A DNA stretch of 64,000 nt from contig UQPI01000001.1 of assembly GCA_900542945.1 (NCBI GenBank), forward strand, positions 6,215 through 70,214, written 5' to 3'. The position numbers and the translations under genes were made by a program. Source of the stretch: an uncultured Collinsella sp. (GTDB lineage: Bacteria; Actinomycetota; Coriobacteriia; Coriobacteriales; Coriobacteriaceae). The notes under the pieces were generated by a model. The model had not been told where the DNA came from. It saw nothing but the letters and a program-made list of their open reading frames with translations, and did no database searches. Each line of letters opens with the position of its first letter. The first letter of the stretch is position 1. Shown here in pieces: positions 42,154 to 59,513 of the stretch.

Positions 42154-43458
42154 ATGGCGGGCGAGAGGCTACATCGGGACGGATACATCCCACGTATCGT
42201 GGATGCGCAAATCGAGCGCTACCTTCGTGTCTTTGGCGCGGTCGAGATTGCGGGCACCAAGTGGTGCGGCAAGACGTGGGCCGCGCTCGAGCACGGGGCG
42301 TCCGTCTCGTATGTCGACGAGAATCTCGACCTCGCGCGTGCCGACCCGGCGATGATGTTGCTGGGTGACCGTCCGCATATTATCGATGAGTGGCAGCGCG
42401 TTCCCCAGATTTGGGACTACGTTAGACACGAGGTTGACCGCACCCGGGGCACGCGCGGCGCCTATATCCTCACGGGTTCCGCCACGCCTGCGTTTGGCTC
42501 AAAGGCGGAGGCGCCCGCGCATAGTGGAGCCGGCCGCATCGGCCGCGTCCGCATGCACCCCATGACGTTTGCCGAGACAGGTGAGTCCAACGGCAAGGTG
42601 AGCCTGGCGGGCTTGTTTGAGCATCGTTTTGAGCCCTGCCGGTGCGATGGCGATACGCCGGGGCTTGTCGAAGCCGCCTGCCGCGGCGGCTGGCCCGAGG
42701 CGATCGATATGGTTTCGGCTGACGCCCAGCTCATCGCCCGCGAATATCTCAACACCACATTTTCGAGCAGCTTCCCGGCGGTCGGTCTCGACCCCGATAT
42801 TGCTCGTCGAGTCTCCGCATCGATCGCGCGCAATCTGGGACAGGCAACCACGTATAAAACGATTCTTATGGATATGTTCGGTGCCGAGGAGGAACCCGCA
42901 GCGTTTGCCGACGAGACCAAGGTGCGTAGGTACCTGGATGCCCTCAAAGGCATGTTCATTCTCGAGGAGGTCCCCGGTTGGGTTCCCGCCGCGCGCGACA
43001 AACGGCGCTTTACCGTCAAGCCCAAGCGCTATCTGGCAGATCCGAGCCTTGCTTGCGCCTTGCTAGGTATGTCCTTGCAGGCGCTGCTTGCCGACTGGCA
43101 GACATTTGGTCTGGTGTTTGAGAATTTGGTCATACGCGACCTTTCGGTCTACGCACGTTCGCTCGACCTGCTGGATAGCACGCCCGTGCGCTATTATCGC
43201 GACGATTCGGGCCTTGAGTGCGATGCTATCGTGCAGCTAGCCGACGGACGGTGGGCCGCCTTTGAGATTAAGGTGAGTGAAGATAAAGCGAGCGCCGGCG
43301 TCGAGAGCCTCAAGCGCGTTCGCAAGAAGGTCTGTGGAAATCCCCGTTCACGCACACGCGAACCGGAGTTTATGGCCGTGATTGTGGGGGTGGGTGAGTA
43401 CGCCCGCGAGGTCGAGGACGGTATCTACGTGATACCCGTGCGCGCGTTGGGGTGTTAA
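42154..43458 (+). CDS. AAA-family ATPase with DUF4143-type C-terminal domain (second copy)
   Basis: Walker A GTKWCGKTWAALE. Same architecture as 37192-38388. Terminator hairpin at 43463-43490. Confidence 0.7.
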   Translation: MAGERLHRDGYIPRIVDAQIERYLRVFGAVEIAGTKWCGKTWAALEHGASVSYVDENLDLARADPAMMLLGDRPHIIDEWQRVPQIWDYVRHEVDRTRGTRGAYILTGSATPAFGSKAEAPAHSGAGRIGRVRMHPMTFAETGESNGKVSLAGLFEHRFEPCRCDGDTPGLVEAACRGGWPEAIDMVSADAQLIAREYLNTTFSSSFPAVGLDPDIARRVSASIARNLGQATTYKTILMDMFGAEEEPAAFADETKVRRYLDALKGMFILEEVPGWVPAARDKRRFTVKPKRYLADPSLACALLGMSLQALLADWQTFGLVFENLVIRDLSVYARSLDLLDSTPVRYYRDDSGLECDAIVQLADGRWAAFEIKVSEDKASAGVESLKRVRKKVCGNPRSRTREPEFMAVIVGVGEYAREVEDGIYVIPVRALGC

Positions 43459-43534: not shown

Positions 43535-43735
43535 TTGACATATGGGGGGGGGAGGCCGCTGGCGCTAACGAGGGCGTGTTAAGGGTGCTCGACTGGCTTA
43601 AACGCACCCTTAACCTCATCTTCACCTCAAATGAGGCTAAGATGAGGTTAAGATGAGGCAAGCAAACAACTGGGCAAATGCTGAAAATAGGGTGCTGTTA
43701 ACCTCAAAATGAGGTTAAGATGAGGCAAAGCTCGA
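43535..43735 (+). promoter_or_regulatory. Candidate regulatory region: TTGACA followed by a G9 homopolymer, then nested palindromes including a 21-bp perfect palindrome TTAACCTCAAAATGAGGTTAA
   Basis: TTGACA 43535-43540. G-run 43544-43552. Hairpins GTTAAGGGTGC...GCACCCTTAAC and TTAACCTCATCTT...AAGATGAGGTTAA. Duplicated AAGATGAGG motifs. Lies ~350-550 bp upstream of the SipW-type operon. Confidence 0.4.
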
Positions 43736-44079
43736 AGGGGTGTGCGAACCGTTCCGCGGACAATGCGCGCCTTAAGCCAACGATGAGCCTGGGTCGATTT
43801 TCGATTTCAACGCAACACCTGAGCCTTTCCCCTGCACCACGTTGGCGCAAACTAACCTGTCCCCCTCGCACCAAGCCCTTGGCGCGCGGGACAGGCTGCT
43901 GCTTGTAATCTTTAAGACATCATTAAGGCTTGCGCTGTGGAGCAAACCGCAGGTCAATGCTATTCTTTTACCTTATCGTATGGTGTTGTATTCTGCCTGA
44001 ATTCTATGCCTACGAGCAACGGATTGATCGCGACCAAGCGGAAAGGATGGCACGCCCGCTAGCAGGGCAAACGTAAACG

Positions 44080-45132
44080 ATGAGTGGCATGGACCGACAT
44101 AGCGAGCTCCAGCAGCACAAGACGGTGGCCGAGTACCGCCAAGCTGCCGACGAGCACGCGCGGACCCTCAAGGATTTCTGGAAAGATTTCCTGGTGAGCG
44201 GTCTGTTTGTGCTGGCCGCCATCGTTGCCATCTTTGCATGCCTGGCCTGGTTTGCCGCGAATAACCGAGTGAGCGCCACGGGGAGCACGATCGGGGCGAA
44301 GGGTCCGCGGTTTGTGCTCTCGGGAACGCAGGGCGGCACGGCGGGCAAGTACGACGCCCAGGACAACTACGCGTCGGACAGTACAAGCCTTGCCGTGAAC
44401 AATCTTTTCAACCTCAATAACATGAGTGCCGATGGCAGTCTCTCTCCGGGGTCGGCTGGTCAGCTCCAGCTCAACGTCAAGCCGCTCTGTAATGACCTGC
44501 GTGATATCACGGTGGAAATGACCTGGGAAATCTCTGTCCAGACGAGCGCTGCGGGCACGGGCGGCACCGCTACGGACGCATCGAAAAACGAAGAGATCAT
44601 CAACTCGCTTAAAAATCTGGTGCGCGGCCATATCCTGGTTTTCCAGGGCAAAGACGACTCTGGCTTTTACTCGAATCCGCTGGTCCCCACGACCACCACG
44701 GTGACCCAGGACGGGGCCAGCGTCACCGTCATTACGCAGAGCTTTACCATCCCGGCGCGGAGCTTTTGCGCTGAGGGCTCAAATAGCACGACAAGAACCG
44801 TACCCAAAACCCTCTACTGGATTTGGCCGGAGCAGTTTAAGAGCTATGTTCGCACGGGTAATGCCGGCTACGGCGGCAACCTTTTTGCAAGCACAGACGC
44901 CGGTTACACTGCCCTCGTCGGCGACATCAACAATAACCACGCGCGCTATTTCCGCGCCGACAGCACGAGCGTTCCGGGCCAGGCGCCCAGCGAGGTTCCG
45001 CCTGTCAAGGCCGGCATGTCCTCTGCATTTGTGGAAGCCTGCGCCGGCTATTACAACAACGCCGACGAGGTTATCGGCAAGAATATCAAGTACATTCGCG
45101 TGCGCTTTACCGCCAAGGAGGCGGATAAATAA
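44080..45132 (+). CDS. TasA/camelysin-like protein with SipW-cognate-type signal peptide (paralog 1)
   Basis: Cytoplasmic N-tail, one TM/h-region, then LAWFAANN and SATGS resembling the A.F.D / AAGTLDL motifs of SipW substrates. Beta-rich extracellular region. No sortase motif. Confidence 0.5.
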   Translation: MSGMDRHSELQQHKTVAEYRQAADEHARTLKDFWKDFLVSGLFVLAAIVAIFACLAWFAANNRVSATGSTIGAKGPRFVLSGTQGGTAGKYDAQDNYASDSTSLAVNNLFNLNNMSADGSLSPGSAGQLQLNVKPLCNDLRDITVEMTWEISVQTSAAGTGGTATDASKNEEIINSLKNLVRGHILVFQGKDDSGFYSNPLVPTTTTVTQDGASVTVITQSFTIPARSFCAEGSNSTTRTVPKTLYWIWPEQFKSYVRTGNAGYGGNLFASTDAGYTALVGDINNNHARYFRADSTSVPGQAPSEVPPVKAGMSSAFVEACAGYYNNADEVIGKNIKYIRVRFTAKEADK

Positions 45133-45951
45133 ATGGACGAGCAGCTTAACGCCCGCGAGCAGGGCGATATCAAGCACAACGAAGAAGTGGTGAACTCCGG
45201 CGACGACGGGTTCGGCTCGCACGGCGAGGCGCGTCCGGCTGGCCGCATCGAGCGCATCGAGACTTGGGTGAGCGGCCACCGTCGCGAATCCCTTGCCATC
45301 ATGGGCCTGGTGGCCGTGCTTCTCGTGTTGCTGGGATTGACGCTCGGATGGTTTGTCGATGCCAATCACGGCTCCACCGTTGGTAAGATCAAGGAGCCGG
45401 CGGAGCTCAAAGTGCTGGGCCCCAACGCTACGGCAACAGAGCAGATCGACCTGAGCTACAACCCCGAATACGGCGATACCAAGACCGGTAACACGGTGAC
45501 GCTCATGCGCCCGTTTTGCGTGCAGACGGGCGGCGATGGGTTTGAGCTGCAGCTTGCGAATACGACCAACATTGAAGGTCTCACTATCGAGCTGTATAAA
45601 GCCGAGAATCCGGGCCCAGGTGATACTTCCGACGTGAGCGGCACTGCGGGCGGCAAGCCCTATAGCTGGAAAATGTCTGAAACGGATCTGCTGAAGGACT
45701 TTAAGCTCATTAAGACCGAGCCGGTCCCCGGTGCAAACGACCCTACATTCAAGGACTACCAAAAGGTCCAACGCAACGCGCGTCCGCTCTACCGTTTCAA
45801 GGTGTTCAACAAAGACGAGCTCAATGCCAAGACGCTCGACGGCTCGACTGGCAACGACACGCTTAACTTCATCATCAAGCTTTCGTGGGACGAGAGCGCC
45901 AAAGAGACCGACGTGATCTATGTGATCGCGCGCAACACGAGCGGTATGTAG
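45133..45951 (+). CDS. TasA/camelysin-like protein with SipW-cognate-type signal peptide (paralog 2)
   Basis: Same architecture (…LLGLTLGWFVDANHGSTVG…). Strong AAGGAGG RBS. The start abuts the previous stop. Confidence 0.5.
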   Translation: MDEQLNAREQGDIKHNEEVVNSGDDGFGSHGEARPAGRIERIETWVSGHRRESLAIMGLVAVLLVLLGLTLGWFVDANHGSTVGKIKEPAELKVLGPNATATEQIDLSYNPEYGDTKTGNTVTLMRPFCVQTGGDGFELQLANTTNIEGLTIELYKAENPGPGDTSDVSGTAGGKPYSWKMSETDLLKDFKLIKTEPVPGANDPTFKDYQKVQRNARPLYRFKVFNKDELNAKTLDGSTGNDTLNFIIKLSWDESAKETDVIYVIARNTSGM

Positions 45952-45965
45952 GAGAGGGGGCGCAC

Positions 45966-46910
45966 ATGGAGAAGCAAGGGAGGCAGCAGGATGCCGAGCG
46001 CGAGCAGCTGGCAAAAGGCAAAAGCCTAGTCAAGAATAAGCTGGTTGTGGCGGCAATCGCACTTGTTTGCGCCGTGGCGCTCGTGACGGGTGGTTACTTT
46101 ACCTATTCCGCCTACACCGCCAACGGATTTCTAAAGTCCGTCGCCGCAACGGGCACCGCGCAGAACCTGTTTGCGAGCGATTTGCTCACGGGCTATATGA
46201 GTGCGCCCAGCAACGACGACCTCGACCGTGCCCAGCGCTCCGTTACGGTGTATCCCAGCGGCGGACAGTGCAGCTTCACCTTTAGCATCTACAACTATTT
46301 GCTGAGCAATAGCAACTTCTGCAACGACAAAAACGTGACGTACACCTTAACGGTCGAGGGGCATGGGCTCGATGATGCCACGTGGAGTTATGCGCCCCAG
46401 CCCAGCGGCAGCGTCACACTTCCGGAGAATCAGCCCACCAAGCACGACTACACCGTGACGTTCCCTGAGGACAAGTTGGGACATGCCTACTTTGTGATTA
46501 GGGCGACGGTTGTTTCGGACAAGAGTCCCGGCACCGAGCTCACCTGTCTGGCGGCGAAAGTCGTGCCGTCAAAGAGGGCCGAGGTCAAAACCGCTGCGGT
46601 TGAGGGCGCGCTTGTTGATGAGGCTGGCGAGTTTGCTGATTACGCTGCGTACAACTACCGCGTGACGGTTACGGGCGCACCGGCAAACGTCACGCTCACG
46701 TGGGGGGAGAACGCGGAGATCGACCCGTTCTTCAAGATCAACCATGGCGCGACGGTGAATGTTGAAAAACACAAGGCTACGTTCACCATGGAGCCGGGTT
46801 CGATGGTCGTCAACTTCTATCGAGCGGACGGCAAAACGCCCGATTCCTGGGGTGACCTGGGCATTAGCGTGAGTGGAACCACCCAAACGGGTACGACGGA
46901 GACTCAATAA
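45966..46910 (+). CDS. TasA/camelysin-like protein with SipW-cognate-type signal peptide (paralog 3)
   Basis: KNKLVVAAIALVCAVALVTGGYFTYSAYT closely follows the SipW-cognate pattern (KK.L..A..LGLALVGGGT.A.F.D). RBS GGAGAGGGGG is present. 15 bp after the previous gene. Confidence 0.55.
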   Translation: MEKQGRQQDAEREQLAKGKSLVKNKLVVAAIALVCAVALVTGGYFTYSAYTANGFLKSVAATGTAQNLFASDLLTGYMSAPSNDDLDRAQRSVTVYPSGGQCSFTFSIYNYLLSNSNFCNDKNVTYTLTVEGHGLDDATWSYAPQPSGSVTLPENQPTKHDYTVTFPEDKLGHAYFVIRATVVSDKSPGTELTCLAAKVVPSKRAEVKTAAVEGALVDEAGEFADYAAYNYRVTVTGAPANVTLTWGENAEIDPFFKINHGATVNVEKHKATFTMEPGSMVVNFYRADGKTPDSWGDLGISVSGTTQTGTTETQ

Positions 46911-46949
46911 CTCTGGCAGCAGAGTTTTAGGATAAGAGGTACGGAATCG

Positions 46950-49900
46950 ATGAGAACGGTAAAGCGCATACTCGCAGAGTTCATGACGGTGGTCATGGTG
47001 CTCCAGGCATGCTCGCCCACGGTGGCCGCCGTGGCGGCCGGCTGGCAGAACATTTCGAGCGAGATTGCCGCCGCGTCTGCGGAGGCATCGGATGCAGCCG
47101 AGAGCGGTGAGACCAACGGCGACGCCGCGAATGGGTCTGGGTCGAGTGATATCGGCGCCGCGGGTGACGGTGCCGAGGATGGTGCTGCGAAGGACGACGC
47201 TGCAACGGGCGATACTTCCGATAGTGCTACGGGTTCCGATTCTACGGGCGACCAGACGGAAGGCGATGATACTGCTGGGGATGCCGCCGCTGATGATGCC
47301 GATCAAAATGCTGGTGATGAGGCTTCGGAAGACACTGCGGCCCAGGCGGGTGCGACGATCACAGATTTGAATAAGCTTGTCGAGCTGCTCAGGGCTAATG
47401 GTGCGGAAAACGTCGAGCTCAAAGACGACGGGAGCGGAATCCGAAGCCTCGATGTCAAGTCGTCGGAGGCGTTCGCCGTCCTGTCTAACGCCGACGCTTC
47501 GCTTTACTATGATGCGCAGATCAAGGTTATCATCACGGGCGATGCGAAGCTCACCGAGTCGGCTAAGAACGGCATGTCTTTCCAGGGCCTTGGCAGTGAT
47601 GAGCATCCGTTTGAAGGCAAAATCTATAGGTCGTTGAATGGCGTTGATAGCCCTGTTGAGCTTACGTCTAACCGGACGGTTTTCAATAACTTCAAACTGA
47701 CTGACCAAAACAATACGGTCAAGATAAAGTGGATAGGCGCAACTACCTATAGCGCGCCGATGGTCGCTACGAAGGTCAGCGGTGGGGGCAAGACGCTCAA
47801 CGCTGTGGTCAACATCGCAGATCCCGTAGGCACCGGCGGGACGGATACGACTTCCGCTCTGACGGCGCCCCTTTTGGGTGAGGCGATGGGTGACCTTACT
47901 ACAGAGGTCACCTATGGCCCTGCCGGTTCTCTCGAGAAGCTCAACGTAAATGCAGCGGGAAACATCGGTCTTTTAGCGAATACAGTCAAGAGCGGAACCT
48001 TTACGGTGGGGTCTGTTAAGTTTCCCGATAGCCTTGCCGCGGGCGGTGTCGTCAAGACGAGCTCCGGTAATGCCGGTCTGCTCGTAGGCACGGTCGAGGA
48101 TGGCGCGACTCTAAACGTCGGCACCCTTAATGTTCCCGCTGTTACCGTTCAGTCTGAAAGCGGTTCCGCCGGTGGCGTCGTGGGCCTCGTCGGTTCGAAC
48201 ACAGGCGCCACAGTCAAGGTCACGGAGGCTCTCGACCTGCACATGCTCACCGTCAAGGGCACCACCGCCAGTGGCGGCTTCATCGGTAAGGCGACCAAGC
48301 TCGCGCTGGGCGCGGACAACAAGAAGTTCACCTGTCCCGCCAACGTCGGCGATAAGAACAGCAAAAGTTCCGGCGGCTTCATCGGCGACGTTAGTTTTGC
48401 CGGCCCGGTCGAGTTTGCCAACAACGACCAAATCGATACGGGCGAGGGCGTGAATCTTGGCCAAAGTGGGGACACGGGCGCGGGCGGCGTGTTCGGTCTC
48501 CTGGACACAACGAACGGCGATGTCGCAATATCAGGTGGCTTGTATACTAGCAAACTGGTGACGGGCTCCAGCTCCATCTATGGCGGTCTGGTCGGTAGAG
48601 TTCAGGATGTGACCAACACAGAGAAGTCGAACAACACCCTTCATATAAAGACGGGTGCCGCGGGCAACCGCTGTTCGGTTGATACTACATGCAGCGTCGC
48701 GCCACGACTGGCAGGAGGCCTGGTCGGCTGGGTGGCAAAGAGCAACAATACTGGAGGCGTTGTAATCGTTGACGGCGCGGACGTCACGTGCCATTCTCCA
48801 AAAGCCAATGGAAAGAACTGCGGGTTTGGCGGTGTTGTTGGCGCCTTGGATAGCGGCTATAGCGTGGGCGGGCGTTCGCGTTTTGGAATTCTGGACTGCG
48901 GGGACGTTCGCGTTGAAACTGATAAAAACGAATCAATCGCATGTGGTGCCGGAATTGTGGGTTCGGCATGGAACGGCGTCTTGCGCTTGCGTGGGACTAC
49001 CGATTTATCCGATTGCAAGCTCGAGGCCAACGGTAATACCAGCCAAATTCTTAGATCCTTGGATGGATGCGCCCCATTGGTGTTTGCTCTAGGTTCAGGC
49101 TCGGATGCTGAGGCAACGAACGATAATTATTGGCTTTACAAACGTCCTGCTGCGGCGAGGATCGATGACCTGACCTATAACCAGGTTATCCGCCTGACCG
49201 GAGAGGAGGGCAAGCTCAGCAAGGATCTTATTAAACTTGATGAAAGCACCTTTTATCAGCCGTTGTGCAATCTGAGTGGTGCTCCAGATGCTGGCAGCAG
49301 TGCTGGCTACTCTTGGGGTAAGCAGCTACGGTCCCAAAATGGTGACGGGAAGTCGGGTACATACCTCATTAATGATGCGGATACATTCGCATGCATTGCC
49401 ATGACGGTCCAAACGAACGGCTACTTTGGCGGTCTATTCGGCATCGGCACGGCTAACATTACGAGCTGGTATGGTAATAGTGGGAATGCTATCTCAATTA
49501 CTTCCGACATTGACCTGCGAGGCACAGGCCTTGAAGGTCTTGCATGTGATGGGTCCGGGCGAGTTAACGCTTTCGTAGGGGCTGTCGAGGGAAACCATCA
49601 TACCGTTACCTTGGCGATTGGCGAACCTTACGGTACGCGCAACGGCAATGCGCTTGGCGCAAACGATTCGACTGAAGGGAACGGCAAGATTTACCGTCAC
49701 AGCCGTCTGGGCCTCTTTGCCGCTATCGGCGGTGGCGCGACGGTGAATAACCTTACCGTCGATGGCGTTATGAAGTTCGATAACGGCTTAGGCGTCGACG
49801 CTGGCTCGCTTGCGGCAACTATCACTGGCAAGGCAACACTCAACGGCGTTACGTGCAAGCCGAAAATCACCTGCGATGATACGTTCGGCAACGATGTCAA

Positions 49901-52900
49901 CATTGGCGGCATTGCTGGTAGCGTGAGGGGTGGTGGAACCGTTACTTTCGGCAGCAGCAACATAAGTGGCAGCACGAAGGCGCAAGCGACCGTCAAAACG
50001 GGCGCTACCCTCAACGGCAACACGCGCATTGGCGGCGCTATCGGTTATGTGGCGGACGTTGTCGCTATCGTCAACGTGACGAGTCTCGAGGTCGGTGACG
50101 CGACGACGAGCGAAAATGCGATTACCGCGGGCGACAGCGCGAGCAATAAGAAATCCCAGGTCGGCGGCTTCATCGGCTGCATCGCTCAAGGGACGCAAGA
50201 GAAACACGTCAACATCACGGGCCTTTCGTTCGACTCGTTCAGCATGACCGTTGGCAAGAACGGTGACGCGAAGAACGGCGCCGGTGGTCTTCTGGGCTAT
50301 AGCTGGGGCAATACTGTTGTCACCATCGGGGATAGCAGCAAAAACACCAGCGTTAGCACGTATGCCCTCAAGACAACCAACGCTTCCATAACCGCTAATA
50401 GCTCAAGTGAACTCGGCGGCCTCGTATACGCCGCTAGTGGCCAATGGATCATCAACGACTATGCGATCGATCTTTCGAACGCAACCATTAATGCCGATAA
50501 GGTAACGGTACTTGGTCTGCTCATCGGTCGAGGCGGTAGGACGGAGAATTCCACAACATATGGAGTGGAAACTTATAGCGGCTTGTATCTGGAGAACAAG
50601 GCGGGTTGGGACACTGCATATAAGATCAATGGTGTTGCTGCGGGCAATGGCGTGAAAATCAACAACACGGCAATCAAAAGCAACGACAATGCTACTTCGT
50701 TTGATGAATGGGTCGGCAACAGCACGAGGCCTGCCTATGGAAATAAAGACGCCAGCAAACTCATGGACGGCGAATGGAATGTCGTCGTTTCGCTTCATAC
50801 CAAAGACGGCGTTAATGACGGTAAGCTCGACATGAGCGGAGAGCCGGGAAACGACAACAGCTATCGCAACCGTTCCGATTTCGGCAAGAACCACAACACG
50901 AATGCCTGGACGAGGTATTACTACAACCTCGACAAAGCCTATGCGGCACTTGGGCAAGGCAGCTCCAAAATTAGCAAAATCGATACGGCGGAAAAGCTGC
51001 TCTTATGGTCCGCTTACCGCTATGCTCCAGCCGCAATTCGCTCGATGATTGTGCCGCAAGCGTTCAACGACGCCGTGGCCATCGGCGGCGAAAGCGGCAG
51101 AAGCGTCGAAATTGATTTGACGGGCTATAGTTACTATCCCACCCAGCCGAACGGAAAGGTGACGGTTGGTAATGCGACCATCACCTTCCATTACTCCGAC
51201 ATCAAGGCCGAGCAGAAAGGCAACAAGCTGAACTCTGCTGCTACCCAGCACGAGAACATGCACTGCGGTCTTTTCCGAACGGTGGCAAATGGCGATCTTA
51301 CGGTGAACGCCGTCACTTTGGGTGGCACTGTTGGGCCCGTTGTCAATGACGGGAGAAGCAAGAATGATATTGCCGCCGCGGGTGGAAGCTCTTCGGGCGC
51401 GCTGGTGTGTCGCTACGTGTATGGGTCTAACAATGGCACGACCACCACTATTAGAAAAATCTCGATTGATGGCCTTACGTTCAACAATTTGACCGTCGAT
51501 GGCGCTAGTGAGGCCACGGGCGCTGATGCTTATATGCCTCTGCTTATAAACGAGATGCAGACGTACGTGAACCTGAGCGCGAAGAACATCACGGCCACGG
51601 GATACGGCCGCAACACCAAGGTGGCAACCTCACTTTTTGGAAGACTGGGCGTGGGTTCGAGTGCCGACCAGGTTACGGCGACGTTTGGTACCATCAACGT
51701 GCCGAGTGCTACGAACAACGCCATCTTTACCCGTGCAAGCTTGCTTGAGAGCTTTGGCTACGGCGAGGGGAAGACCGGCTCGGCGGTGTATACCTTTATA
51801 AAGGATGACCAGACAAACGATAAGGTCACATTCGGCAGCGAGATCGACTCGAAGGGCGAATACTCTGGTAAGCAACTCTGGTACTACAACGAGAGCACCT
51901 ATGGGACCCGCGCTGGCCTCGTCACCGTTGACAACAAAGAGGCAAATGCGGGTACTCCGCAATTCGGCGGTTATCTCCCGTATGTGAAAAAGGGCAATGT
52001 CAACGAAAACAAAGTCCAATACCACGAAATCAAAGTTAACCAGCGTGTGCCCAAGCTTACGACGGGCTGCGGTACCTATGGCGATCCCTATGCCATAACT
52101 AAAGCATCAGAGCTCAACACGGTTGCTGAGTATATCAACACGCAAAATGCAATCGACGGTTGGGAAGTAACGATTGCCGCCAATCAGGAAGAGCTATGTC
52201 AGCGTCGTTCGTCCAGTGAGAATACTGAAAACGAAGTGACGTACATCTACAAACAGGCGAACAAAACATGGGAGAGGAAGACGGAGGATAACACCACCGA
52301 CTCTGGGGATTCGCTTGACGATGCGACGATGCACCGCTATCTCCAAAGCGCCTACTACAGTATCGAGCCGGTTGATAGCGAGGGAAATAGGACCGATACG
52401 CTTGTGCTCGATACCACCGCTTTCCAGGGTTTGGGCAATCAGAGCAACCCGTTCAGGGGGGTTGTTGTTGGCAATCTGAGGGACGGCGGTTTAGCGACCA
52501 TCAAGATTGACAAGCCCGAAGGCGCAAGCGCGCTTTCCGGATTGATCCCGTATAGCTACGGCAGCGTTGTGAGCAATCTGAATATTGAATACTCGGGCAC
52601 GGCAACCTCAATTGCATATAAGAGTAAAGATACATCTGGTGTGCCTGGCGCTTTTTTTGGCGGTGTGATCGGTTGCATCATGGGCGGTGACAATATCATC
52701 GATGGCGTGTCGGTGAATGCGGATGCCGGCTTTAGCGTTGCTGGGGCGGCAGGCGATAATGGCGGCGGCGCGCACCTTGTGCCCGTTGGCGGCTACGTTG
52801 GTGCTGTTGCGGGTGGCGGCGTCATCTTCCGCAACTCTTCGCGCGGCGACGGTGCCCTTAACCCCTGGCATGGCGCCGGTACTTCTCTCTATGACAACCC

Positions 52901-55900
52901 GTATGTTGGCCGCGTGATTGACGGCTATGCGTTCAGCGAGCTTACCGATGGTAGGAGTCTCGACAACACTGATCGCAACTACAAGGTGAACAATCTGGAT
53001 ACTTCGAAGACGGGGTGCATCAAGACGGATGCGACGCAGGGCCGCTATAGGGGAGACGACGCCAATAGCTCTGCGATAACCACAACCGTCAATGACTCGC
53101 AGGGACTGCTCGTACTCTCGGCCATCATCAGCAGCGGTGCGGCCGGCGGTTCGGCGAATACGAATACCACGAACGATGCGTATGGAACGTATGCGGGCTC
53201 GCGTGCCTACATGGGCGGCAACAACGCAAAGGGAGTGTACCAATTCGGCAACAAGCAATACGGCAAAGTTCGCAATGCGAGCTATGCATCCGTTGGAAAG
53301 CCGGGGAGTGCCGACAGCGATTTTGCCGATGCGAAAAACGATGACATGAAAAGCCCCGGTATCCAGTGGGAGGGTAACGCGCTCGACTACACAGGCGATG
53401 GTTCGGGCGTTAACTCCCCCTACCTGATAAAGAAATACGCGACGTGGCAGACGGGCTACGTCTGTGCCGCGCAGGTCTCGGGAATGGATTTGCGGTTCGT
53501 GAACACGAACAAGGACATTGATCCGGACAAGGACATTGATTATGACATGACGCCTTACGGTACGGGTTACACGGGTCTTTCGGGCCGCTACTACTCAAAC
53601 GCATGCGCATCCGGTAAGGGCGCCGACCGCGATCGCATCGTGCCGCTTGTTGCGTGCATCAACGGCGACGACGGTGCAAAAATTAAGGTCGGTAGCAAGA
53701 AGGCCAACAAGGTATATGGGGTCACGGAGTACGCCGACGATAATTACAAACTCACCGGATTGGGCGCTCTCTTTGGCACCGTAACGTACACCTCGACCAA
53801 CGTGTCGGGGAGTATCGGCACTCCGGCAACGGACGGCGCTGCTGCTACGGGCAACGGCGGCTATACCGTCCAGAACCTAAAGTTCGATGACTGCAATATT
53901 TCTCTTACGTATATCAATGCAGCCGGCGCCCCCAGTGGTTCGGGTAATGAGCAGGTTGGCGTCGGTCTGCTTGCGGGTACTACGGCGAACGCGAGCTCGC
54001 TGGCAGATTACGGCAAATATGCAGGAATTACCATGGATAACTGCAGGGTGAATGGCCCCAATAACGTTGGCGGATTGCTCGGCGCATCCGGCTATGGTAG
54101 CCGCAGGACTGACAAAGATGCAACTTTGCTGGTGAATCGTAACGATGAATCACAAGCGACAACGCGCTATTCTCCGGTCAAACTTTACGATTGCTCTTAT
54201 AGCAACATGGACATTTCTGGCGTGCAAAACGTCGGTGGCTTCGTCGGCAAGCTGAACAAAAATTCCGCTGGTGGCGTTTGGACAAAAACGAACATGTCTA
54301 TTGCCAAGAATTCCACGATTATGTCAACTGCTTCTAACGCAAGGACCGGCGGTGTCGTGGGTCTTGCTGGAGGTGGTTTCCTGGTGAACACCGATGATGC
54401 TGGAACGCCTTCGCAGGGTGCCGGAAAGGCGGAGATCAGCAATGTCACGCTTCAGCCGGCAGCATCGAGCGCGACCGAGGGGACCGGCGGCCTTATCGGA
54501 AGGTCCGAAAATGGAATCGTGTCTGTCTACAATCTGTGCATCCAAGGCGACGTGCAGAGTAAAACGGTATTTGGTGTTAGAGGATCGAATAATCTTAAGT
54601 ACGTTGCTGGTGCAGTTGGCGAAGCGGCTTCGGGCGGTGCATTTAAGTTCGATAGCTGTGTAATAAAAGACATCTATCTTGGTGCTCGTGAGTGCTCTGC
54701 CGGTTTAATCGGTGATCTGAAAGGTGGGTGTGCCCTCGAGGTCAAGAATTCAACTATCACTGGACTGGTCGTCGATGGTTCGTATTCTGGTAGTGTTGTT
54801 GGCTCGATCGGTAACACGGCGAACTCTGTCACGCTTTTGAATTCGACCATTGGCGAGAATAACTTTACCGGTAGCAAGAACGCTGCATGGAACTCATCGC
54901 TGGGAAATTGTTCTGGTGGCGTGTCTGGCGATGGCCGTGGCTCATTTAGGCTCGTAAACGTGCTCATGGATCGCAATATCTTTGGGGCGCAAACTAGCCA
55001 GGGATATTTGTTCGGAAATAGTTCATCCGCTGATCTTGTCAACGTTTTTGTCGCAGGAATTGCCATTAGACCAAACAGTGCGAGTGAATCGCTCAAGCTG
55101 ATGCGCAATTCTTCCGGCACCGACGACCTTAAAAAAGTGAACAAAAAGTCATACATCGCATTTGCTGCCTATGAAGACAAGCTTTCCGATGCCAAGGGCG
55201 CGACACTGTATGGCAACGATGCTGCGAACGGCAATGTGACGCCGGCCGTTTCGCCCTACGTGACTACGAGTCCGGTGAGCGAGCTGGCGGTGCGTGCCTC
55301 CGACAACGACACCACCGATCGCCATCTGTTTGGCGACGGCATGAACGTTCCTGGTGCAGCGACTATCAAGGACCAAGCGGGGACCAACGTCACCAACCGT
55401 TATACCTACACCAATATCGGTGGCATCGATAAAGACGGCGCCTATCAAAATACCTCGAGCTACGATGCCTCATCCGTGGCGAGTAAGTTCAATTCGAATA
55501 ATGATACAAGCAACAACCAAGCCACAACGGATTTCCCTGTTTTGGTGATCTCTGGCAACGACAACACGACGGTCAAGAGCTATCTAAACATCATCACGAA
55601 CGGCGGCTTCTCCGACGCTTGCAGATTGAATAACGAGAATGGCACCAATCCGCACGTGACGGCCAAAGCAGAGGTTTTCCAACTCAAGGATGGTGTGTTC
55701 GTTAAGGACGATGACGCGTCGAACAATCCCACGCTTCGCGTAGTGAACAACGGCAAGAACAATATGTCGTTTAGCCCAAGCTCCGATTGGGACAACGGCA
55801 AAGGTCGCTTTACGCTCCTGACCGTTACCTTTACCGAGGCGGGTCAGAGCTACAACGTTCAGGTGCCGATCATCGTTAAGCGCAAGCTCGAGATTGATTT

Positions 55901-57857
55901 CACTGCAACATATGATTACGGCACCAACTTTAAAGAAAGTGATTACGCTAACCTTGGAAAAGATGCACACGTGCTTACGAGCTTTGGCGAGCCGATGACG
56001 GGTCTGCTTACCTGGACATACAATTCTGCCAATGGGAAGGAAGTCGACTTTGGCTGGGACAGCTATATGGCTGCTGGCGGCTCGATGAAGGGGCTTGGCA
56101 AGAGCATCCTCTTCAATGGTGCCGACGGAAGGTTGCCCCAAGGCACCCAGCTTACGCTCATCGATGCGAACGTTGATGGCAAAGCCGGTGGCAGAGAGTA
56201 CCACTATACGGTGGGCGAAGGCGGAGCAACGAGCGTTTCCCTGAGCGGAAATGCGGGCTTTGAGGATTCTGCGGGCAATCCATATCAGGAGCGATGGCTG
56301 AGCGAGATTTTGGATGTGTATGCCGAAAAGGATGGCGCCGGCACATGGGCCGAGTGTAATAACGAGGCAGAGGCGACCGCTAAGGCGAAACTCGGAGATA
56401 CGTGGAAGCTGTTTAAGGTTGCAGGCGCTGACGTTCCCAGCAAAAGTCGCTATACGCTAAAGGTACCTAAGGAGGAGAAAACCGGCAGGGAGCAGCGTGC
56501 GTCGGAGAGCGTCTACCTAGTTGTCAACGTGCCCAAGTCGGGCGACGGCATGACGCAAGCTAATATCAACGGTTTTACGGCTTCGTCTATTGACTCGAAT
56601 TCTTCGGGTGCCCGCATATCTTGGAATCTGCATCACGTCTTGCGCACCGGTGGCGAAGATAATCAAAACAGTACGGCATCGACATACAGCATCTTGTCCA
56701 ATTATGAGCAGAGTGTAGTCGACAATAAAAATGCGGCGCGCATTCCGGTTTCAAAGTCGGAGGACGGTGCCGCCTATGTGCTTTCTCTTGACGTCAAAGA
56801 TACGGTTACGTTTAGCCCGAGCCAATACTATACAGAGAGTGACCATCTGTTCTATCAGCTCGATACATCGCTGTGTCGCTATGGCGCCAACAACAACCTA
56901 ATGGGAGTAAGTAGTTTCCCGAGCGGAACCTCGGCAATTGCGAAGTTTTATGTTGCCATCGGCGGTCAGAACTACAGGTGGAATGGCGGCGATTGGGAGC
57001 CGTGTGACGCTTCGACGCCTGCGTTCACGCAGACCGTGACGGATACAGGCGATGATTCGTTGAAGCTCAAGCTCGATTATGACCTCGCCGGAATCCGCAA
57101 GATCGCAACGGACGGATCCTTTACCGTGCGTACGGTGGTGGAAGAGATTCGCCTTACGCCGGACGGCTGCAACAAGGTTATCTCCCTGTCCAAGCAGTCT
57201 GGCGAGGACGCCTGTACCAAGATGTCCTATACCGCCAAGCTTTCGACGCGTAAGGAAGGTCTTAATACCTCGAGCCTGACGCAGACGAAGCCCGGTAACG
57301 TCGGATACTATCGCATGGACACGGGTGATACGACCATTACGCTTTCTGCGCCAGATAAGTCGCAGCTTGGTATTAACGTGGACGACCTACGTCCGATCGC
57401 GAATGGCACGATTGGTCTGGGTGCCACGTATGAACTGGGTGGTCTTAGCAATGCCGCCGAGGCAATCGCGAACGCCGACTCTGTTGTGTACACGCTCGCG
57501 CTTCAGCGCCGCGGAACCGACGGCACGTATGAGAGCGTAACGGATGATATCTCCAACTACGTAACGGTGACGGAGAGTAAGCTTGCCGCGGCCGCTCCCT
57601 CCGGTAGCACGATCACCTTCACTGACTCGAAGGAGAATGGCAAGTTCAAAACGCAGAACGGTGACACTACGTTTAGCCTGCCCTTTACCGTTAAGGTCAA
57701 CACGCAGGTTGAACAGCGTGAGCAGTTCTACGCGAACTATCGATTGGTAATGAGAGCGAGCCTGGTTAAGGGTGACGTGGCGAGCGCAAAGCCTCAATCG
57801 CCCGACTATGTGACCTATACGCTCACGAGGGTGAACCTCAACGGCATCGACCACTAG
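46950..57857 (+). CDS. Giant secreted protein (3635 aa): Sec signal peptide, ~100-aa acidic low-complexity linker, then very long beta-helical region packed with GLUG-type motifs (GGLVG/GGVVG/GGFIG) and a second module opening with GCGTYGDPYAI
   Basis: N-terminal MRTVKRILAEFMTVVMVLQA...AAVAAGW signal. Dozens of GG[LVFI][LVI]G repeats across the whole length. G.G..DPY.I module start at about aa 1700. No LPXTG or other anchor at the C-terminus. RBS AAGAGGT is present. It lies 40 bp after paralog 3, consistent with one operon. Confidence 0.8.
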   Translation: MRTVKRILAEFMTVVMVLQACSPTVAAVAAGWQNISSEIAAASAEASDAAESGETNGDAANGSGSSDIGAAGDGAEDGAAKDDAATGDTSDSATGSDSTGDQTEGDDTAGDAAADDADQNAGDEASEDTAAQAGATITDLNKLVELLRANGAENVELKDDGSGIRSLDVKSSEAFAVLSNADASLYYDAQIKVIITGDAKLTESAKNGMSFQGLGSDEHPFEGKIYRSLNGVDSPVELTSNRTVFNNFKLTDQNNTVKIKWIGATTYSAPMVATKVSGGGKTLNAVVNIADPVGTGGTDTTSALTAPLLGEAMGDLTTEVTYGPAGSLEKLNVNAAGNIGLLANTVKSGTFTVGSVKFPDSLAAGGVVKTSSGNAGLLVGTVEDGATLNVGTLNVPAVTVQSESGSAGGVVGLVGSNTGATVKVTEALDLHMLTVKGTTASGGFIGKATKLALGADNKKFTCPANVGDKNSKSSGGFIGDVSFAGPVEFANNDQIDTGEGVNLGQSGDTGAGGVFGLLDTTNGDVAISGGLYTSKLVTGSSSIYGGLVGRVQDVTNTEKSNNTLHIKTGAAGNRCSVDTTCSVAPRLAGGLVGWVAKSNNTGGVVIVDGADVTCHSPKANGKNCGFGGVVGALDSGYSVGGRSRFGILDCGDVRVETDKNESIACGAGIVGSAWNGVLRLRGTTDLSDCKLEANGNTSQILRSLDGCAPLVFALGSGSDAEATNDNYWLYKRPAAARIDDLTYNQVIRLTGEEGKLSKDLIKLDESTFYQPLCNLSGAPDAGSSAGYSWGKQLRSQNGDGKSGTYLINDADTFACIAMTVQTNGYFGGLFGIGTANITSWYGNSGNAISITSDIDLRGTGLEGLACDGSGRVNAFVGAVEGNHHTVTLAIGEPYGTRNGNALGANDSTEGNGKIYRHSRLGLFAAIGGGATVNNLTVDGVMKFDNGLGVDAGSLAATITGKATLNGVTCKPKITCDDTFGNDVNIGGIAGSVRGGGTVTFGSSNISGSTKAQATVKTGATLNGNTRIGGAIGYVADVVAIVNVTSLEVGDATTSENAITAGDSASNKKSQVGGFIGCIAQGTQEKHVNITGLSFDSFSMTVGKNGDAKNGAGGLLGYSWGNTVVTIGDSSKNTSVSTYALKTTNASITANSSSELGGLVYAASGQWIINDYAIDLSNATINADKVTVLGLLIGRGGRTENSTTYGVETYSGLYLENKAGWDTAYKINGVAAGNGVKINNTAIKSNDNATSFDEWVGNSTRPAYGNKDASKLMDGEWNVVVSLHTKDGVNDGKLDMSGEPGNDNSYRNRSDFGKNHNTNAWTRYYYNLDKAYAALGQGSSKISKIDTAEKLLLWSAYRYAPAAIRSMIVPQAFNDAVAIGGESGRSVEIDLTGYSYYPTQPNGKVTVGNATITFHYSDIKAEQKGNKLNSAATQHENMHCGLFRTVANGDLTVNAVTLGGTVGPVVNDGRSKNDIAAAGGSSSGALVCRYVYGSNNGTTTTIRKISIDGLTFNNLTVDGASEATGADAYMPLLINEMQTYVNLSAKNITATGYGRNTKVATSLFGRLGVGSSADQVTATFGTINVPSATNNAIFTRASLLESFGYGEGKTGSAVYTFIKDDQTNDKVTFGSEIDSKGEYSGKQLWYYNESTYGTRAGLVTVDNKEANAGTPQFGGYLPYVKKGNVNENKVQYHEIKVNQRVPKLTTGCGTYGDPYAITKASELNTVAEYINTQNAIDGWEVTIAANQEELCQRRSSSENTENEVTYIYKQANKTWERKTEDNTTDSGDSLDDATMHRYLQSAYYSIEPVDSEGNRTDTLVLDTTAFQGLGNQSNPFRGVVVGNLRDGGLATIKIDKPEGASALSGLIPYSYGSVVSNLNIEYSGTATSIAYKSKDTSGVPGAFFGGVIGCIMGGDNIIDGVSVNADAGFSVAGAAGDNGGGAHLVPVGGYVGAVAGGGVIFRNSSRGDGALNPWHGAGTSLYDNPYVGRVIDGYAFSELTDGRSLDNTDRNYKVNNLDTSKTGCIKTDATQGRYRGDDANSSAITTTVNDSQGLLVLSAIISSGAAGGSANTNTTNDAYGTYAGSRAYMGGNNAKGVYQFGNKQYGKVRNASYASVGKPGSADSDFADAKNDDMKSPGIQWEGNALDYTGDGSGVNSPYLIKKYATWQTGYVCAAQVSGMDLRFVNTNKDIDPDKDIDYDMTPYGTGYTGLSGRYYSNACASGKGADRDRIVPLVACINGDDGAKIKVGSKKANKVYGVTEYADDNYKLTGLGALFGTVTYTSTNVSGSIGTPATDGAAATGNGGYTVQNLKFDDCNISLTYINAAGAPSGSGNEQVGVGLLAGTTANASSLADYGKYAGITMDNCRVNGPNNVGGLLGASGYGSRRTDKDATLLVNRNDESQATTRYSPVKLYDCSYSNMDISGVQNVGGFVGKLNKNSAGGVWTKTNMSIAKNSTIMSTASNARTGGVVGLAGGGFLVNTDDAGTPSQGAGKAEISNVTLQPAASSATEGTGGLIGRSENGIVSVYNLCIQGDVQSKTVFGVRGSNNLKYVAGAVGEAASGGAFKFDSCVIKDIYLGARECSAGLIGDLKGGCALEVKNSTITGLVVDGSYSGSVVGSIGNTANSVTLLNSTIGENNFTGSKNAAWNSSLGNCSGGVSGDGRGSFRLVNVLMDRNIFGAQTSQGYLFGNSSSADLVNVFVAGIAIRPNSASESLKLMRNSSGTDDLKKVNKKSYIAFAAYEDKLSDAKGATLYGNDAANGNVTPAVSPYVTTSPVSELAVRASDNDTTDRHLFGDGMNVPGAATIKDQAGTNVTNRYTYTNIGGIDKDGAYQNTSSYDASSVASKFNSNNDTSNNQATTDFPVLVISGNDNTTVKSYLNIITNGGFSDACRLNNENGTNPHVTAKAEVFQLKDGVFVKDDDASNNPTLRVVNNGKNNMSFSPSSDWDNGKGRFTLLTVTFTEAGQSYNVQVPIIVKRKLEIDFTATYDYGTNFKESDYANLGKDAHVLTSFGEPMTGLLTWTYNSANGKEVDFGWDSYMAAGGSMKGLGKSILFNGADGRLPQGTQLTLIDANVDGKAGGREYHYTVGEGGATSVSLSGNAGFEDSAGNPYQERWLSEILDVYAEKDGAGTWAECNNEAEATAKAKLGDTWKLFKVAGADVPSKSRYTLKVPKEEKTGREQRASESVYLVVNVPKSGDGMTQANINGFTASSIDSNSSGARISWNLHHVLRTGGEDNQNSTASTYSILSNYEQSVVDNKNAARIPVSKSEDGAAYVLSLDVKDTVTFSPSQYYTESDHLFYQLDTSLCRYGANNNLMGVSSFPSGTSAIAKFYVAIGGQNYRWNGGDWEPCDASTPAFTQTVTDTGDDSLKLKLDYDLAGIRKIATDGSFTVRTVVEEIRLTPDGCNKVISLSKQSGEDACTKMSYTAKLSTRKEGLNTSSLTQTKPGNVGYYRMDTGDTTITLSAPDKSQLGINVDDLRPIANGTIGLGATYELGGLSNAAEAIANADSVVYTLALQRRGTDGTYESVTDDISNYVTVTESKLAAAAPSGSTITFTDSKENGKFKTQNGDTTFSLPFTVKVNTQVEQREQFYANYRLVMRASLVKGDVASAKPQSPDYVTYTLTRVNLNGIDH

Positions 57858-57860: not shown

Positions 57861-57915
57861 CGAAGCCAACTAGCTTCGCAAAGGGGGCGGCAACCACCCG
57901 GTGGCCGCCCCCTTC
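57861..57915 (+). terminator. Terminator hairpins after the giant gene
   Basis: AAGGGGGCGGCaaccacccggtGGCCGCCCCCTT plus small hairpin GAAGCCAACTAGCTTC. Confidence 0.65.
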
Positions 57916-57920
57916 AACTC

Positions 57921-58036
57921 CCCACCATCTTTCCAGCTTTCCACTTAACTTAACACTTAAGGTGGAAAGCTGGGTAGAAAGCTGGAAAGTTAGGTGGAAA
58001 GCTGGTAAGTTAAGTGGAAAGCTGGAAAGTTGGGAG
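57921..58036 (+). repeat. ~115-bp repeat A: palindrome CCACCATCTTTCCAGCTTTCCAC..GTGGAAAGCTGG followed by tandem GTGGAAAGCTGG(A/T)AAGTT iterons (direct copy at 59549-59644)
   Basis: About 90% identical copies flank gene 58044-59513 in direct orientation. Copy B lacks one iteron. Confidence 0.85.
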
Positions 58037-58043: not shown

Positions 58044-59513
58044 ATGAACGAGGAATGGTTGGCGCAGGTCATTCATCACCTGCGAACAATAGGAAACGAC
58101 ACCCAGCAGTACGAGGTAAAAGAAGCCAAGGGAGCGCTTCCAAAGAGCATCGTCGAGACGCTCTCGGCATTTTCCAACGCGCAGGGCGGCTTTATCATCC
58201 TCGGCATTTCCGAAAAGAACGGGTTTACGCCTGTCGATGGTTTCGATGCTCGCAAGATGCAAGACGCTCTCTCTTCTGCGTGCGAAAAGCTGACGCCCGT
58301 TGTGAGGCCGGATATCCAAGTGGTTCCCTTTGAGGGAAAACTGGTGCTTTGTGCTCGCATCAAAGAGATGCATCCGCGCGATAAGCCCTGCTATATCACG
58401 GCGCGTGGAATGTACGATTCGTCCTTCCTCCGTACGGGCGACGGCGACCGGCGTATGACTCCCTATGAGGTCGACCGCTTTATGGAGGAGCATGTTCAGC
58501 CCACATACGATGACGAGCCAGTCGAAGGCGCCACGCTCGAAGATCTTGACGCCGATCTTCTGCAAGGGTTTATAAAACGCCAGCGCGAGCTGCATCCTAG
58601 GATTTTGGGCGCCAGAAGCGATGAGGAGATTCTCCTTGACCTGCATGTGACCAAAAAGGTGGAGGACGCAATCGTGCCGACGCTTGCTGCTATTGTTGCG
58701 ATGGGACGGTTTCCGCAAAAGTTCTTCCCACGTCTCAATGTGACCTTTACGGCGTATCCCGGGACCACAAAAACGCAGCGAGTAAGCGACAACAAGCGTT
58801 TTCTGGATTCGCAGACCATTTTGGGGCCGATCCCTTTCATGATTGAAGACGCGCTTGCCGCCGTTGCAAGAAACACCCGAAACGCTGCGGTGATTGAGGG
58901 GGCATTTCGGAAAGATGTGCCCGACTATCCGCCCGTGGCACTGCGCGAGGCAGTGGCGAATGCGCTCATGCATCGCGACTACTCTTCCGCCGCGCGCGGC
59001 TCACAAGTGCAGGTCAACCTGTATATCGACCGTGTCGAGATTCTCAATCCCGGAGGACTGTACGGCGATGTCACAGTCGATTCGCTGGGAACTTCTGGAG
59101 TTTCGTCATCCAGAAACCAGTTTCTTTCAAATATCCTCGAGACCACGCCGTACCCAGGCGGTGGCTACGTGGTCGAAAACCGTGGCACCGGTTATCAGGA
59201 GATAGGCGAGCAGCTTGAGCGTGCAAACATGTTGCCGCCCAAACCAAAAAACTCGACGGTTTCTTTTTCTCTGACGTTCGATAAGCGAAAGATAATGCAG
59301 GCGGAACAGGCGACCTCCGTAGGGCATGTGGACGAGGCAATCTTGGGTTACCTGGCAACGCATTCTTCGGCTTCGGCCAAGGAGCTCACGGAGGCTTCGG
59401 GTTTGAGCAGGAGCGCCGTTTCCAACCACATAAAAGGTTTAATTGGCGCGGGCAAGATTGAACCCATGGAGCCACCGCGCAGCCCGCGACAACGGTATCG
59501 ACTCGCGCGGTAG
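58044..59513 (+). CDS. COG2865-type putative transcriptional regulator (Schlafen/AlbA_2 divergent-AAA domain + HATPase-like + C-terminal wHTH)
   Basis: YEVKEAKGALPKSIVETLSAFSNAQGGFIILGISEKNGFTPVDG is the hallmark AlbA_2 N-terminus. C-terminal HTH-like LSRSAVSNHIKGLIGAGKI. RBS GGGAGG precedes the ATG at 58044. Confidence 0.75.
   Translation: MNEEWLAQVIHHLRTIGNDTQQYEVKEAKGALPKSIVETLSAFSNAQGGFIILGISEKNGFTPVDGFDARKMQDALSSACEKLTPVVRPDIQVVPFEGKLVLCARIKEMHPRDKPCYITARGMYDSSFLRTGDGDRRMTPYEVDRFMEEHVQPTYDDEPVEGATLEDLDADLLQGFIKRQRELHPRILGARSDEEILLDLHVTKKVEDAIVPTLAAIVAMGRFPQKFFPRLNVTFTAYPGTTKTQRVSDNKRFLDSQTILGPIPFMIEDALAAVARNTRNAAVIEGAFRKDVPDYPPVALREAVANALMHRDYSSAARGSQVQVNLYIDRVEILNPGGLYGDVTVDSLGTSGVSSSRNQFLSNILETTPYPGGGYVVENRGTGYQEIGEQLERANMLPPKPKNSTVSFSLTFDKRKIMQAEQATSVGHVDEAILGYLATHSSASAKELTEASGLSRSAVSNHIKGLIGAGKIEPMEPPRSPRQRYRLAR

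Follow-up and report, generated by a model that had tools for sequence, protein, structure and literature searches.

Do four adjacent genes of an uncultured Collinsella species build a surface structure, and of what kind would it be? The genes, here called g1 to g4, lie in a stretch of 64,000 nucleotides (nt) of contig UQPI01000001.1 (assembly GCA_900542945.1, positions 6,215 to 70,214), referred to below as the window. They encode three small proteins, each with a single N-terminal hydrophobic segment, followed by one giant secreted protein. The original prediction, based on the letters of the window, saw in them a candidate sortase-independent fibre or adhesin system made of three TasA/camelysin-like proteins with SipW-type signals and a giant consisting of GLUG repeats. 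We report that the four genes form a genuine operon with the same gene order in two phyla, that g3 as modelled has an immunoglobulin-like (Ig-like) fold, and that the locus is hypervariable within Collinsella. The reading we favour, and to which we give an evenly balanced chance of being correct, is that the four genes are one conserved module displaying the giant secreted protein without sortase, with the small Ig-like proteins serving as anchor, adaptor or short stalk.

One operon in two phyla

Open reading frame (ORF) calls on the window placed the four genes on the forward strand (Table 1), separated in order by gaps of 0, 14 and 39 nt, in agreement with the co-directional arrangement and short gaps first described. 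The genes are tightly packed, and g1 and g2 are coupled stop codon to start codon. For g3 the true start is the ATG at 45966 rather than the GTG at 45885, and the same start was called independently on L001, a metagenomic contig of identical sequence. Good Shine-Dalgarno-like sequences precede g2, g3 and g4, as had been stated for all four genes, but inspection of the sequence revealed no obvious one upstream of the g1 start. A guanine-cytosine (GC)-rich hairpin behind g4 is likely to be the operon terminator; it has no T-run and for that reason was not in the consensus terminator scan. Packing of the genes, together with the same gene order in six divergent loci, bears out the operon that had been proposed.

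Those six loci come from two phyla and encode proteins of approximately 350, 240, 310 and 3,500 amino acids (aa) in this order. An allele whose g1 is only 47% identical sits at this chromosomal position too, likewise with four genes in this order (341, 268, 333 and 3560 aa), and the order is also found in two further divergent alleles. An exhaustive search for g3 yielded 127 representatives among 1.84 billion proteins, nearly all of about 300-340 aa and aligned over their full length; a further homologue search with the g3 profile returned close Collinsella relatives only. Two among the most distant of these representatives (24-29% identity) lie on contigs of 46% and 39% GC and have kept the gene order, with modules of 353/241/308/3728 aa and 350/238/317/3529 aa, respectively. 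When these two loci, L089 and L091, were compared with the window by BLASTP, identities were 26-27% for g1, 31-33% for g2, 27% for g3 and 30% over 3,400 residues for g4, all four proteins being orthologous (g4 along its entire length); g2 orthologues in L003, L089 and L091 were 31-41% identical (BLASTP and tblastn). The concern that the four genes might not be co-conserved in relatives is thereby refuted. L089 and L091 have other flanking genes, and the four genes are still together. Exact-match look-ups tied the 39% GC module to [Ruminococcus] torques and other Clostridia, where its proteins are entered as 'Uncharacterised protein' or 'hypothetical protein' (the g2 orthologue, WP_144367711.1, under the former name). 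Judged from sequence, the module has crossed phyla.

Relatives of g1 number 866 at 90% clustering, all without a protein name. With one genome per species scanned, a relative was present in 216 species-level genomes of Collinsella and Coriobacteriaceae, and the 80 loci listed are from Collinsella, Coriobacteriaceae or metagenome-assembled genomes. The host of the window is itself a Collinsella of the aerofaciens group. Public names on the module proteins are all 'hypothetical' or 'uncharacterised', and a literature search found no paper describing the module. A lone g3 homologue without a giant gene (L087, 10001-10954, on an Acetatifactor-like contig) adjoins an IS110 transposase and is probably a disrupted module.

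Directly upstream of g1, an in-frame ATG with a good Shine-Dalgarno sequence (GGAAAGG) was observed (44048-44079), the frame of which is closed by a TAA at 44075-44077, 3 nt ahead of the g1 ATG. This frame is open in other strains, where g1 begins MARPQAGQTQA-MSGM...; the difference points either to re-initiation at g1 in the present allele or to a start that differs between strains. Farther upstream, a 23-nt unit (AAGATGAGGTTAAGATGAGGCAA) is present three times in the intergenic stretch 43609-43730, together with inverted repeats of 21 nt. These repeats, which could be an operator-like site or an insertion relic, lie just outside the stretch conserved in L003, which begins at 43911.

The exported proteins

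Each small protein consists of a tail, a hydrophobic helix, a short motif and an ectodomain. In g1 a tail of about 36 aa is followed by the helix (aa 37-56), the motif A↓WFAANNRVSATGSTIGAK (arrows denote putative processing sites) and an ectodomain that combines a beta-sandwich with helices; GHILxF, YWIWPxxF and YYNxADExIG are conserved in the protein. The tail of g2 comprises about 50 aa, and behind its hydrophobic helix follow the motif G↓WFVDANHGSTVGKIKEPAELKVLGPN and an ectodomain without assigned fold. For g3, a tail of about 25 aa and the hydrophobic helix lead to the putative cleavage site TYS↓AYTANGFLKSV and to two tandem Ig-like beta-sandwich domains (approximately aa 70-205 and 210-306). 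The motifs LAWFAANN, LGWFVDAN and GGYFTYSAYT named in the original prediction are all found in the translations, and the single hydrophobic segment per protein, N-terminal in every case, was confirmed. With 18-23 residues these segments are of membrane-spanning length. Neither an LPXTG motif nor a C-terminal hydrophobic anchor is present in the g1, g2 and g3 sequences. BLASTP among the three proteins detected no paralogy, and their only similarity in hhalign comparisons is the N-terminal hydrophobic segment plus a few residues after it, where AWF in g1 and g2 is matched by AAY in g3. The three are not recognisable paralogues, and paralogy was rejected.

The residues around the putative sites are conserved. 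All 37 members of the g3 family obey the -3/-1 rule of signal peptidase, with T, S, A or V at -3 and A, S, T or G at -1, directly followed by [A/I/V]-[Y/F]; the family pattern is A-[YF]-T after the site and F-[AS]-S-x-x-L further on. Low-GC g3 relatives carry a normal Gram-positive signal peptide of 24-36 aa as presequence. Corresponding sites are C-L-A↓WF, C-I-A↓WF and G-I-A↓WF in g1 orthologues, and T-L-G↓WF, S-L-S↓WF, S-Y-A↓WF and V-G-A↓WF in g2 orthologues. A signal peptidase I site at the same place in the three families is thus plausible, and in all of them a conserved extension of 15-20 residues separates the predicted site from the folded domain. The type IV pilin class III signal, G↓(F/M)xxxE, was found in none of g1-g3 or their orthologues, the conservation being located at the C-terminal end of the helix. 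Unlike g2 and g3, g1 retains its tail (approximately 35-45 residues) across phyla, and its helix has small residues every 3-4 positions (F43, A47, A50, A53, A56) that are invariant across phyla. Tail and small-residue helix face suggest a function in the membrane.

Structure prediction with AlphaFold2 (AF2) covered the g1 and g3 monomers, with 37 diverse relatives as input for g3. The g3 model (predicted local distance difference test, pLDDT, 89.3) has a helix at residues 22-61 and two beta-sandwich domains, which were modelled complete at a pLDDT of about 97 and with no obvious missing strand. These are tandem Ig-like (CnaB-type) stalk domains as in sortase-dependent pilins. In the fold search the model resembled the pilins EbpB, LrpA, BcpA and RrgB and the C-terminal domains of antigen I/II, while TasA was absent from the top 60. 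Because its fold matches are of this kind, g3 as modelled is an Ig-like, stalk-type surface protein and not a TasA jelly roll. The g1 model contains a continuous helix from residue 16 to 61, and Foldseek returned the TasA fibre 8aur at rank 11 (expectation value, E, 0.05; TM 0.16-0.22).

Sequence families gave little further guidance. Pfam, NCBIfam, PHROGs and PADLOC searches with g1-g4 yielded nothing above noise, and PDB sequence searches with single sequences and family profiles of g1-g4 produced no match, TasA included. Peptidase_M73 (PF12389) was matched at E<=1 by none of 12 proteins, namely g1-g3 of the window and nine orthologues from L003, L089 and L091. TIGR04088 matched neither full-length g1-g3 (E<=1) nor any of ten N-termini from the window and the same three loci (E<=10); it matches 3 of the 37 g3-family members, with a best E of 0.012, and is still the NCBIfam model with the most matches in that family. 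PDB chain 8aur_A is TasA from residue 28, so that the mature fibre subunit begins AFND. Alignment of the g3 family to TasA by hhalign reached E 0.0027, but a probability of only 11%, and was collinear on three motif pairs (T-AAYT/TWAAFND, lFSSnyL/TFASGTLDL and IyN/FEN); for g1 (E 0.82) and g2 (E 0.072) the hydrophobic segment alone was aligned. The likeness to TasA appears to lie at the level of N-terminal design and motifs, and membership of the family is not established. Hence the proposed TasA/camelysin identity fails on Peptidase_M73, on the low TM of g1 and on the fold ranking of g3. The proposed SipW-type signal survives in part, as an N-terminal layout reminiscent of TasA (in the g3 family a -3/-1 site, then A-[YF]-T and F-[AS]-S-x-x-L), but not as a TIGR04088 match.

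As first noted, the window seems to hold no SipW-type peptidase: a motif scan for the signal peptidase I signature S-x-S-M-x-P found none in the real ORFs of the 64 kb. No signal peptidase gene stands beside the module in L001, L003-L006, L089 or L091 (the flanks of L101 and L103 are too short to judge), and no sortase family was found among the called genes of related loci. The missing SipW is not fatal to a TasA-like mechanism, given that archaeal ABP filaments are processed by a generic peptidase (PMC9245690). The [Ruminococcus] torques-type g3 (L091, 4323-5273) has a weak Pfam match to DUF5305 at noise level (E 0.071), noted as a lead only; this family includes TafG of archaeal tafi, a protein connected with dedicated signal peptidases (PMC11821415).

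The giant protein g4 starts with a Sec-type signal peptide and a conserved V-x-A cleavage site at about aa 27-30; the n- and h-regions (RRI[L/I]AG[F/I]LA...) and the V-x-A site are kept across phyla. An acidic low-complexity linker extends to about aa 135, the first 200 residues being 20% Asp+Glu, and is followed by a long Gly-rich region to about aa 2770 with GGxxG and GxxxDPY cap-like motifs. Many Gly residues of the GGxxG type are invariant among orthologues and the GxxxDPY motifs recur, a pattern compatible with a solenoid. The last ~870 residues are poorer in Gly and probably form beta-sandwich domains; their hhalign matches to domain 1 of g3 are weak and non-significant. The C-terminus has neither LPXTG nor a transmembrane anchor, the N-terminal signal-like segment being the only hydrophobic one, and profile scans of the whole protein and of eight fragments revealed no known wall-binding domain (SLH, LysM, CWB, WxL, GW). 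Linker and lack of a cell-wall anchor are therefore as originally described. The composition 'almost entirely' of GLUG repeats is not: GLUG (PF07581) was matched neither by whole g4 (E<=1) nor by the eight fragments (E<=10), and GG[LIVFM][LIVFM]G occurs in 15 copies, mostly clustered at aa 408-627, 827-1112 and 2374-2513, and a single copy stands apart from these at 1904. Self-BLASTP found zero internal repeats, which also disposes of g4 as a tandem-repeat protein.

Two further candidate identities of g4 were rejected. The window protein contains a lipobox-like VLQAC↓SP, but its Cys is missing in the L003, L089 and L091 orthologues, which share the V-x-A site; g4 is thus not generally a lipoprotein. 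The motif QHENMH (aa 1433-1438; 51246-51263) recalls an HExxH metalloprotease, but the Glu is replaced in 3 of 6 orthologues (QHYMMH, QHYTMH, QHMNMH). Both His, the Gln and the Met are invariant in the six orthologues across phyla, and the motif could bind metal.

A hypervariable mosaic and its surroundings

In Collinsella the module occupies a fixed chromosomal position between housekeeping genes, and its interior is hypervariable. Compared with L003 and with L093, L095 and L100, DNA identity within the mosaic region (Table 1) ranges from undetectable to 74%, and flanks are 92-98% identical. Over the upstream genes and g1 codons 1-74, L003 is 93-95% identical to the window in its DNA (94% for the 5' part of g1), and this identity collapses at 44302. 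At the other end, identity is back to 92-95% from 55254 (g4 aa ~2769) and amounts to 94-98% downstream. Residues 1-74 of g1 are invariant among alleles with ectodomains 35-50% identical, and the gene next to g4 encodes an identical protein in contigs with g4 alleles of 3551-3567 aa. Such a mosaic between conserved ends is the pattern expected of an exposed surface structure under diversifying selection. The variable region is not swapped as one co-adapted block, since type-A genes g1, g2 and g3 are combined with three or more strongly differing variable regions of g4 and breakpoints fall inside g4.

Table 1. Coordinates of the module and its subregions within the window.
Feature	Coordinates	Strand	Description
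g1	44080..45132	+	350 aa
g2	45133..45951	+	272 aa; ATG abuts g1 stop codon
g3	45966..46910	+	314 aa
g4	46950..57857	+	3635 aa
Conserved 5' part of g1	44080..44301	+	aa 1-74 (tail, membrane helix, juxtamembrane motif); outside hypervariable region
Hypervariable mosaic region	44302..55253	+	g1 ectodomain, g2, g3 and g4 aa 1-~2768
Conserved 3' part of g4	55254..57857	+	C-terminal ~870 aa; 92-95% DNA identity to alleles <=67% identical upstream
GC-rich hairpin	57881..57914	+	24 nt past g4 stop; inverted repeat I8, 15-nt arms, 93% complementary

Between an Oxidored_FMN gene and g1 lies a gene for an AAA_14/DUF4143 ATPase (42154-43458), which has a paralogue at 37192-38388, is absent at that position in L003-L006 and matches the PADLOC candidate defence family PDC-S01 (E 1e-53). 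On the other side of the module, a Schlafen/AlbA_2-HATPase_c_4-HTH gene (58044-59513) matches PADLOC models associated with pAgo and Aga (~1e-16), and contigs that differ in their g4 allele encode the identical protein. An imperfect palindrome of 96 nt stands on either side of this gene (57918-58013 and 59546-59641), the two copies sharing 93% identity. A 2178-aa protein with VWA and FctA (pilin-type) domains is encoded ~8 kb downstream of the module in L093 (18942-21470) and L098 (18927-21470), and some Collinsella contigs therefore have a conventional pilus or adhesin locus nearby too. Far upstream in the window (106-5790), another very large secreted protein (1894 aa) is encoded, in which a GH31 glycosidase is accompanied by F5/8 type C, NedA-like, fn3, Big_2 and FIVAR domains.

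Competing accounts and known surface systems

Under the favoured reading, g4 would be exported by Sec and its signal peptide cut at the conserved V-x-A site, leaving it without an anchor of its own. Export of g1, g2 and g3 would proceed via their similar N-terminal hydrophobic segments, each ending in a signal-peptidase-type site, and the small proteins would be dedicated partners (anchor, adaptor or short stalk) holding or presenting g4. Among them, g1 is the likely membrane-proximal anchor because of its long N-terminal tail and its membrane helix with a conserved small-residue face, while g3, and perhaps g2, would be set free and attach by way of their N-terminal extensions, for which strand complementation is a possible mode. 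Recombination would have diversified the exposed parts in Collinsella, as one would expect of a structure that phages or host antibodies recognise.

Several points weigh against this account. We infer interaction among the four proteins, as we do complex formation, surface location and adhesin function, and the predicted cleavage of the small proteins follows from residue rules; acidic N-regions of up to ~55 aa, as in the Collinsella proteins, are atypical for signal peptides. Alleles of g1-g3 and g4 assort independently, which gives no co-variation support for contact with the variable part of g4. A domain shared between g4 and g1-g3 was not found by hhalign with 300-residue windows (maximal probability 5.5%), and on this result a pilin-like domain common to them was rejected. 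Moreover, the structural models are those of g1 and g3, and that of g1 has moderate confidence (pLDDT 64.5).

The same observations can be read differently. The small proteins might be subunits of a fibre that assembles by donor-strand exchange like TasA, ABP or tafi, each inserting its extension into the next sandwich, with g4 as tip adhesin and uncleaved g1 as membrane anchor or terminator. We regard this as unlikely, albeit worth serious thought. The extension conserved in all three families fits such a fibre, as do the collinear alignment of the g3 family to TasA, the AFND start of mature TasA and the standing of TIGR04088 as the NCBIfam model most often matched in the g3 family; such a fibre can do without a dedicated SipW, as archaeal ABP shows (PMC9245690), and multi-subunit fibres built of tip, adapter, shaft and anchor are known from tafi (PMC11821415). 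Yet the hhalign probability is low, TIGR04088 is hit by few g3-family members (E>=0.012) and by none of the N-termini, Peptidase_M73 is unmatched, the g3 domains appear complete without a donated strand, and no locus with recovered flanks has a signal peptidase gene in or beside the module. Alternatively, g1-g3 could stay uncleaved as bitopic membrane chaperones, export or folding helpers or a sensor, with the giant being released or held by the wall via its conserved C-terminal region. This too strikes us as improbable. Segments long enough to span the membrane, a g1 tail and helix face conserved across phyla, and the continuous helices of both AF2 models would suit such proteins; so would the independent assortment of g1-g3 alleles and the g4 variable region, and the conservation of the C-terminal ~870 aa of g4 between alleles, which is reminiscent of S-layer wall-binding domains. 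Arguing the other way are the low-GC g3 relatives, whose signal peptides are textbook cases of cleavable ones and follow the -3/-1 pattern perfectly, and the lack of a known wall-binding domain in g4; Ig-like stalk folds, moreover, are met more typically in structural surface proteins.

A last possibility, that the genes owe their association to a mobile or defence island, for example as a phage-derived receptor-binding fibre or as part of the adjoining defence-like genes, we consider very remote. Both flanking genes match PADLOC models, the 96-nt repeats bracket the Schlafen gene, and the spread across phyla implies horizontal transfer. Against this, g1-g4 themselves match neither PHROG nor PADLOC, the position in Collinsella is fixed between housekeeping genes, the AAA_14 gene is absent from other alleles, and the four genes stay together in L089 and L091 despite different flanks.

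How does the module, taken in the favoured reading as a display system, relate to known ones? With TapA-SipW-TasA of Bacillus subtilis and archaeal AbpA/AbpB it has in common co-encoded small secreted beta-sandwich proteins and no sortase; TasA (TWA↓AFND...TFASGTLDL) and g3 (TYS↓AYTAN...LFASDLL) are alike, at motif level, in putative or known site, aromatic pair and N-terminal extension, and TapA and AbpB, as accessory anchors or nucleators beside a main subunit, add to the likeness. Unlike the TasA system, the module has no Peptidase_M73 or TIGR04088 match, no TasA-like jelly roll in the fold search and no sipW. Its small proteins are three and unrelated, in contrast to one major subunit, and its 3,500-aa giant has no counterpart in the tasA operon. 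Sortase-assembled pili (CppA, EbpB, LrpA, BcpA, RrgB; tip, shaft and base plus sortase C) follow a similar operon logic of small subunits plus a large adhesin, but the four proteins lack LPXTG, a C-terminal membrane anchor and a pilin motif, and the module has no sortase gene.

Type 1/P pili (FimH-FimG-FimF-FimA) and tafi (TafC-TafE-TafA-TafF) likewise consist of several small Ig-like subunits with a conserved N-terminal extension and a larger terminal adhesin without it, and one subunit is a proposed anchor. Unlike these, the module has no chaperone, usher or dedicated peptidase gene, its hosts are monoderm bacteria, and strand exchange is hypothetical here. The type IV minor-pilin/PilY1 tip complex resembles it in that several small proteins, each with an N-terminal hydrophobic helix and a beta-rich head, are encoded beside a large non-pilin adhesin exported by Sec, but G↓FxxxE and genes for a prepilin peptidase, ATPase and platform are missing, and the conserved motif is at the outer rather than the inner helix end. 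Giant beta-solenoid proteins (Apilactobacillus kunkeei Giant1-5, PMC12863079; serine-rich repeat adhesins) are, as g4, secreted and 3,000-8,000 aa in length, have Gly-rich regions that are solenoid-like in them and may be so in g4, and are strongly diversified within species via intragenic recombination; in contrast to g4, they have not been described with three conserved small exported partners. No sequence similarity of g4 to any solved or curated family was detected. The module resembles known surface systems in its logic and belongs to none of the families tested.

The most far-reaching version of these ideas, which we put forward tentatively and think rather unlikely, is a third kind of Gram-positive appendage, independent of both sortase and type IV machinery. 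Its three Ig-like subunits would be cleaved at a site like that of TasA and linked to one another through N-terminal strand complementation on a membrane-embedded g1 base, presenting a hypervariable tip of 3,500 residues, and it would be shared horizontally between abundant Actinomycetota and Lachnospiraceae of the human gut.

The Collinsella aerofaciens group and relatives of [Ruminococcus] torques are widespread commensals of the human gut that association studies have connected with disease, and to our knowledge their surface structures are almost unknown. The module, approximately 14 kb in which every gene is publicly a 'hypothetical protein', occurs in at least 216 species-level Collinsella genomes and is among the loci that vary most between strains. 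If it is a surface adhesin or fibre, it would be a likely determinant of strain-specific colonisation, immunoglobulin A recognition or phage adsorption, would show how giant proteins are displayed without sortase in monoderm bacteria, and would define four protein families for possible addition to curated databases. Should assembly by strand exchange prove true, it could represent a new class of Gram-positive appendage.

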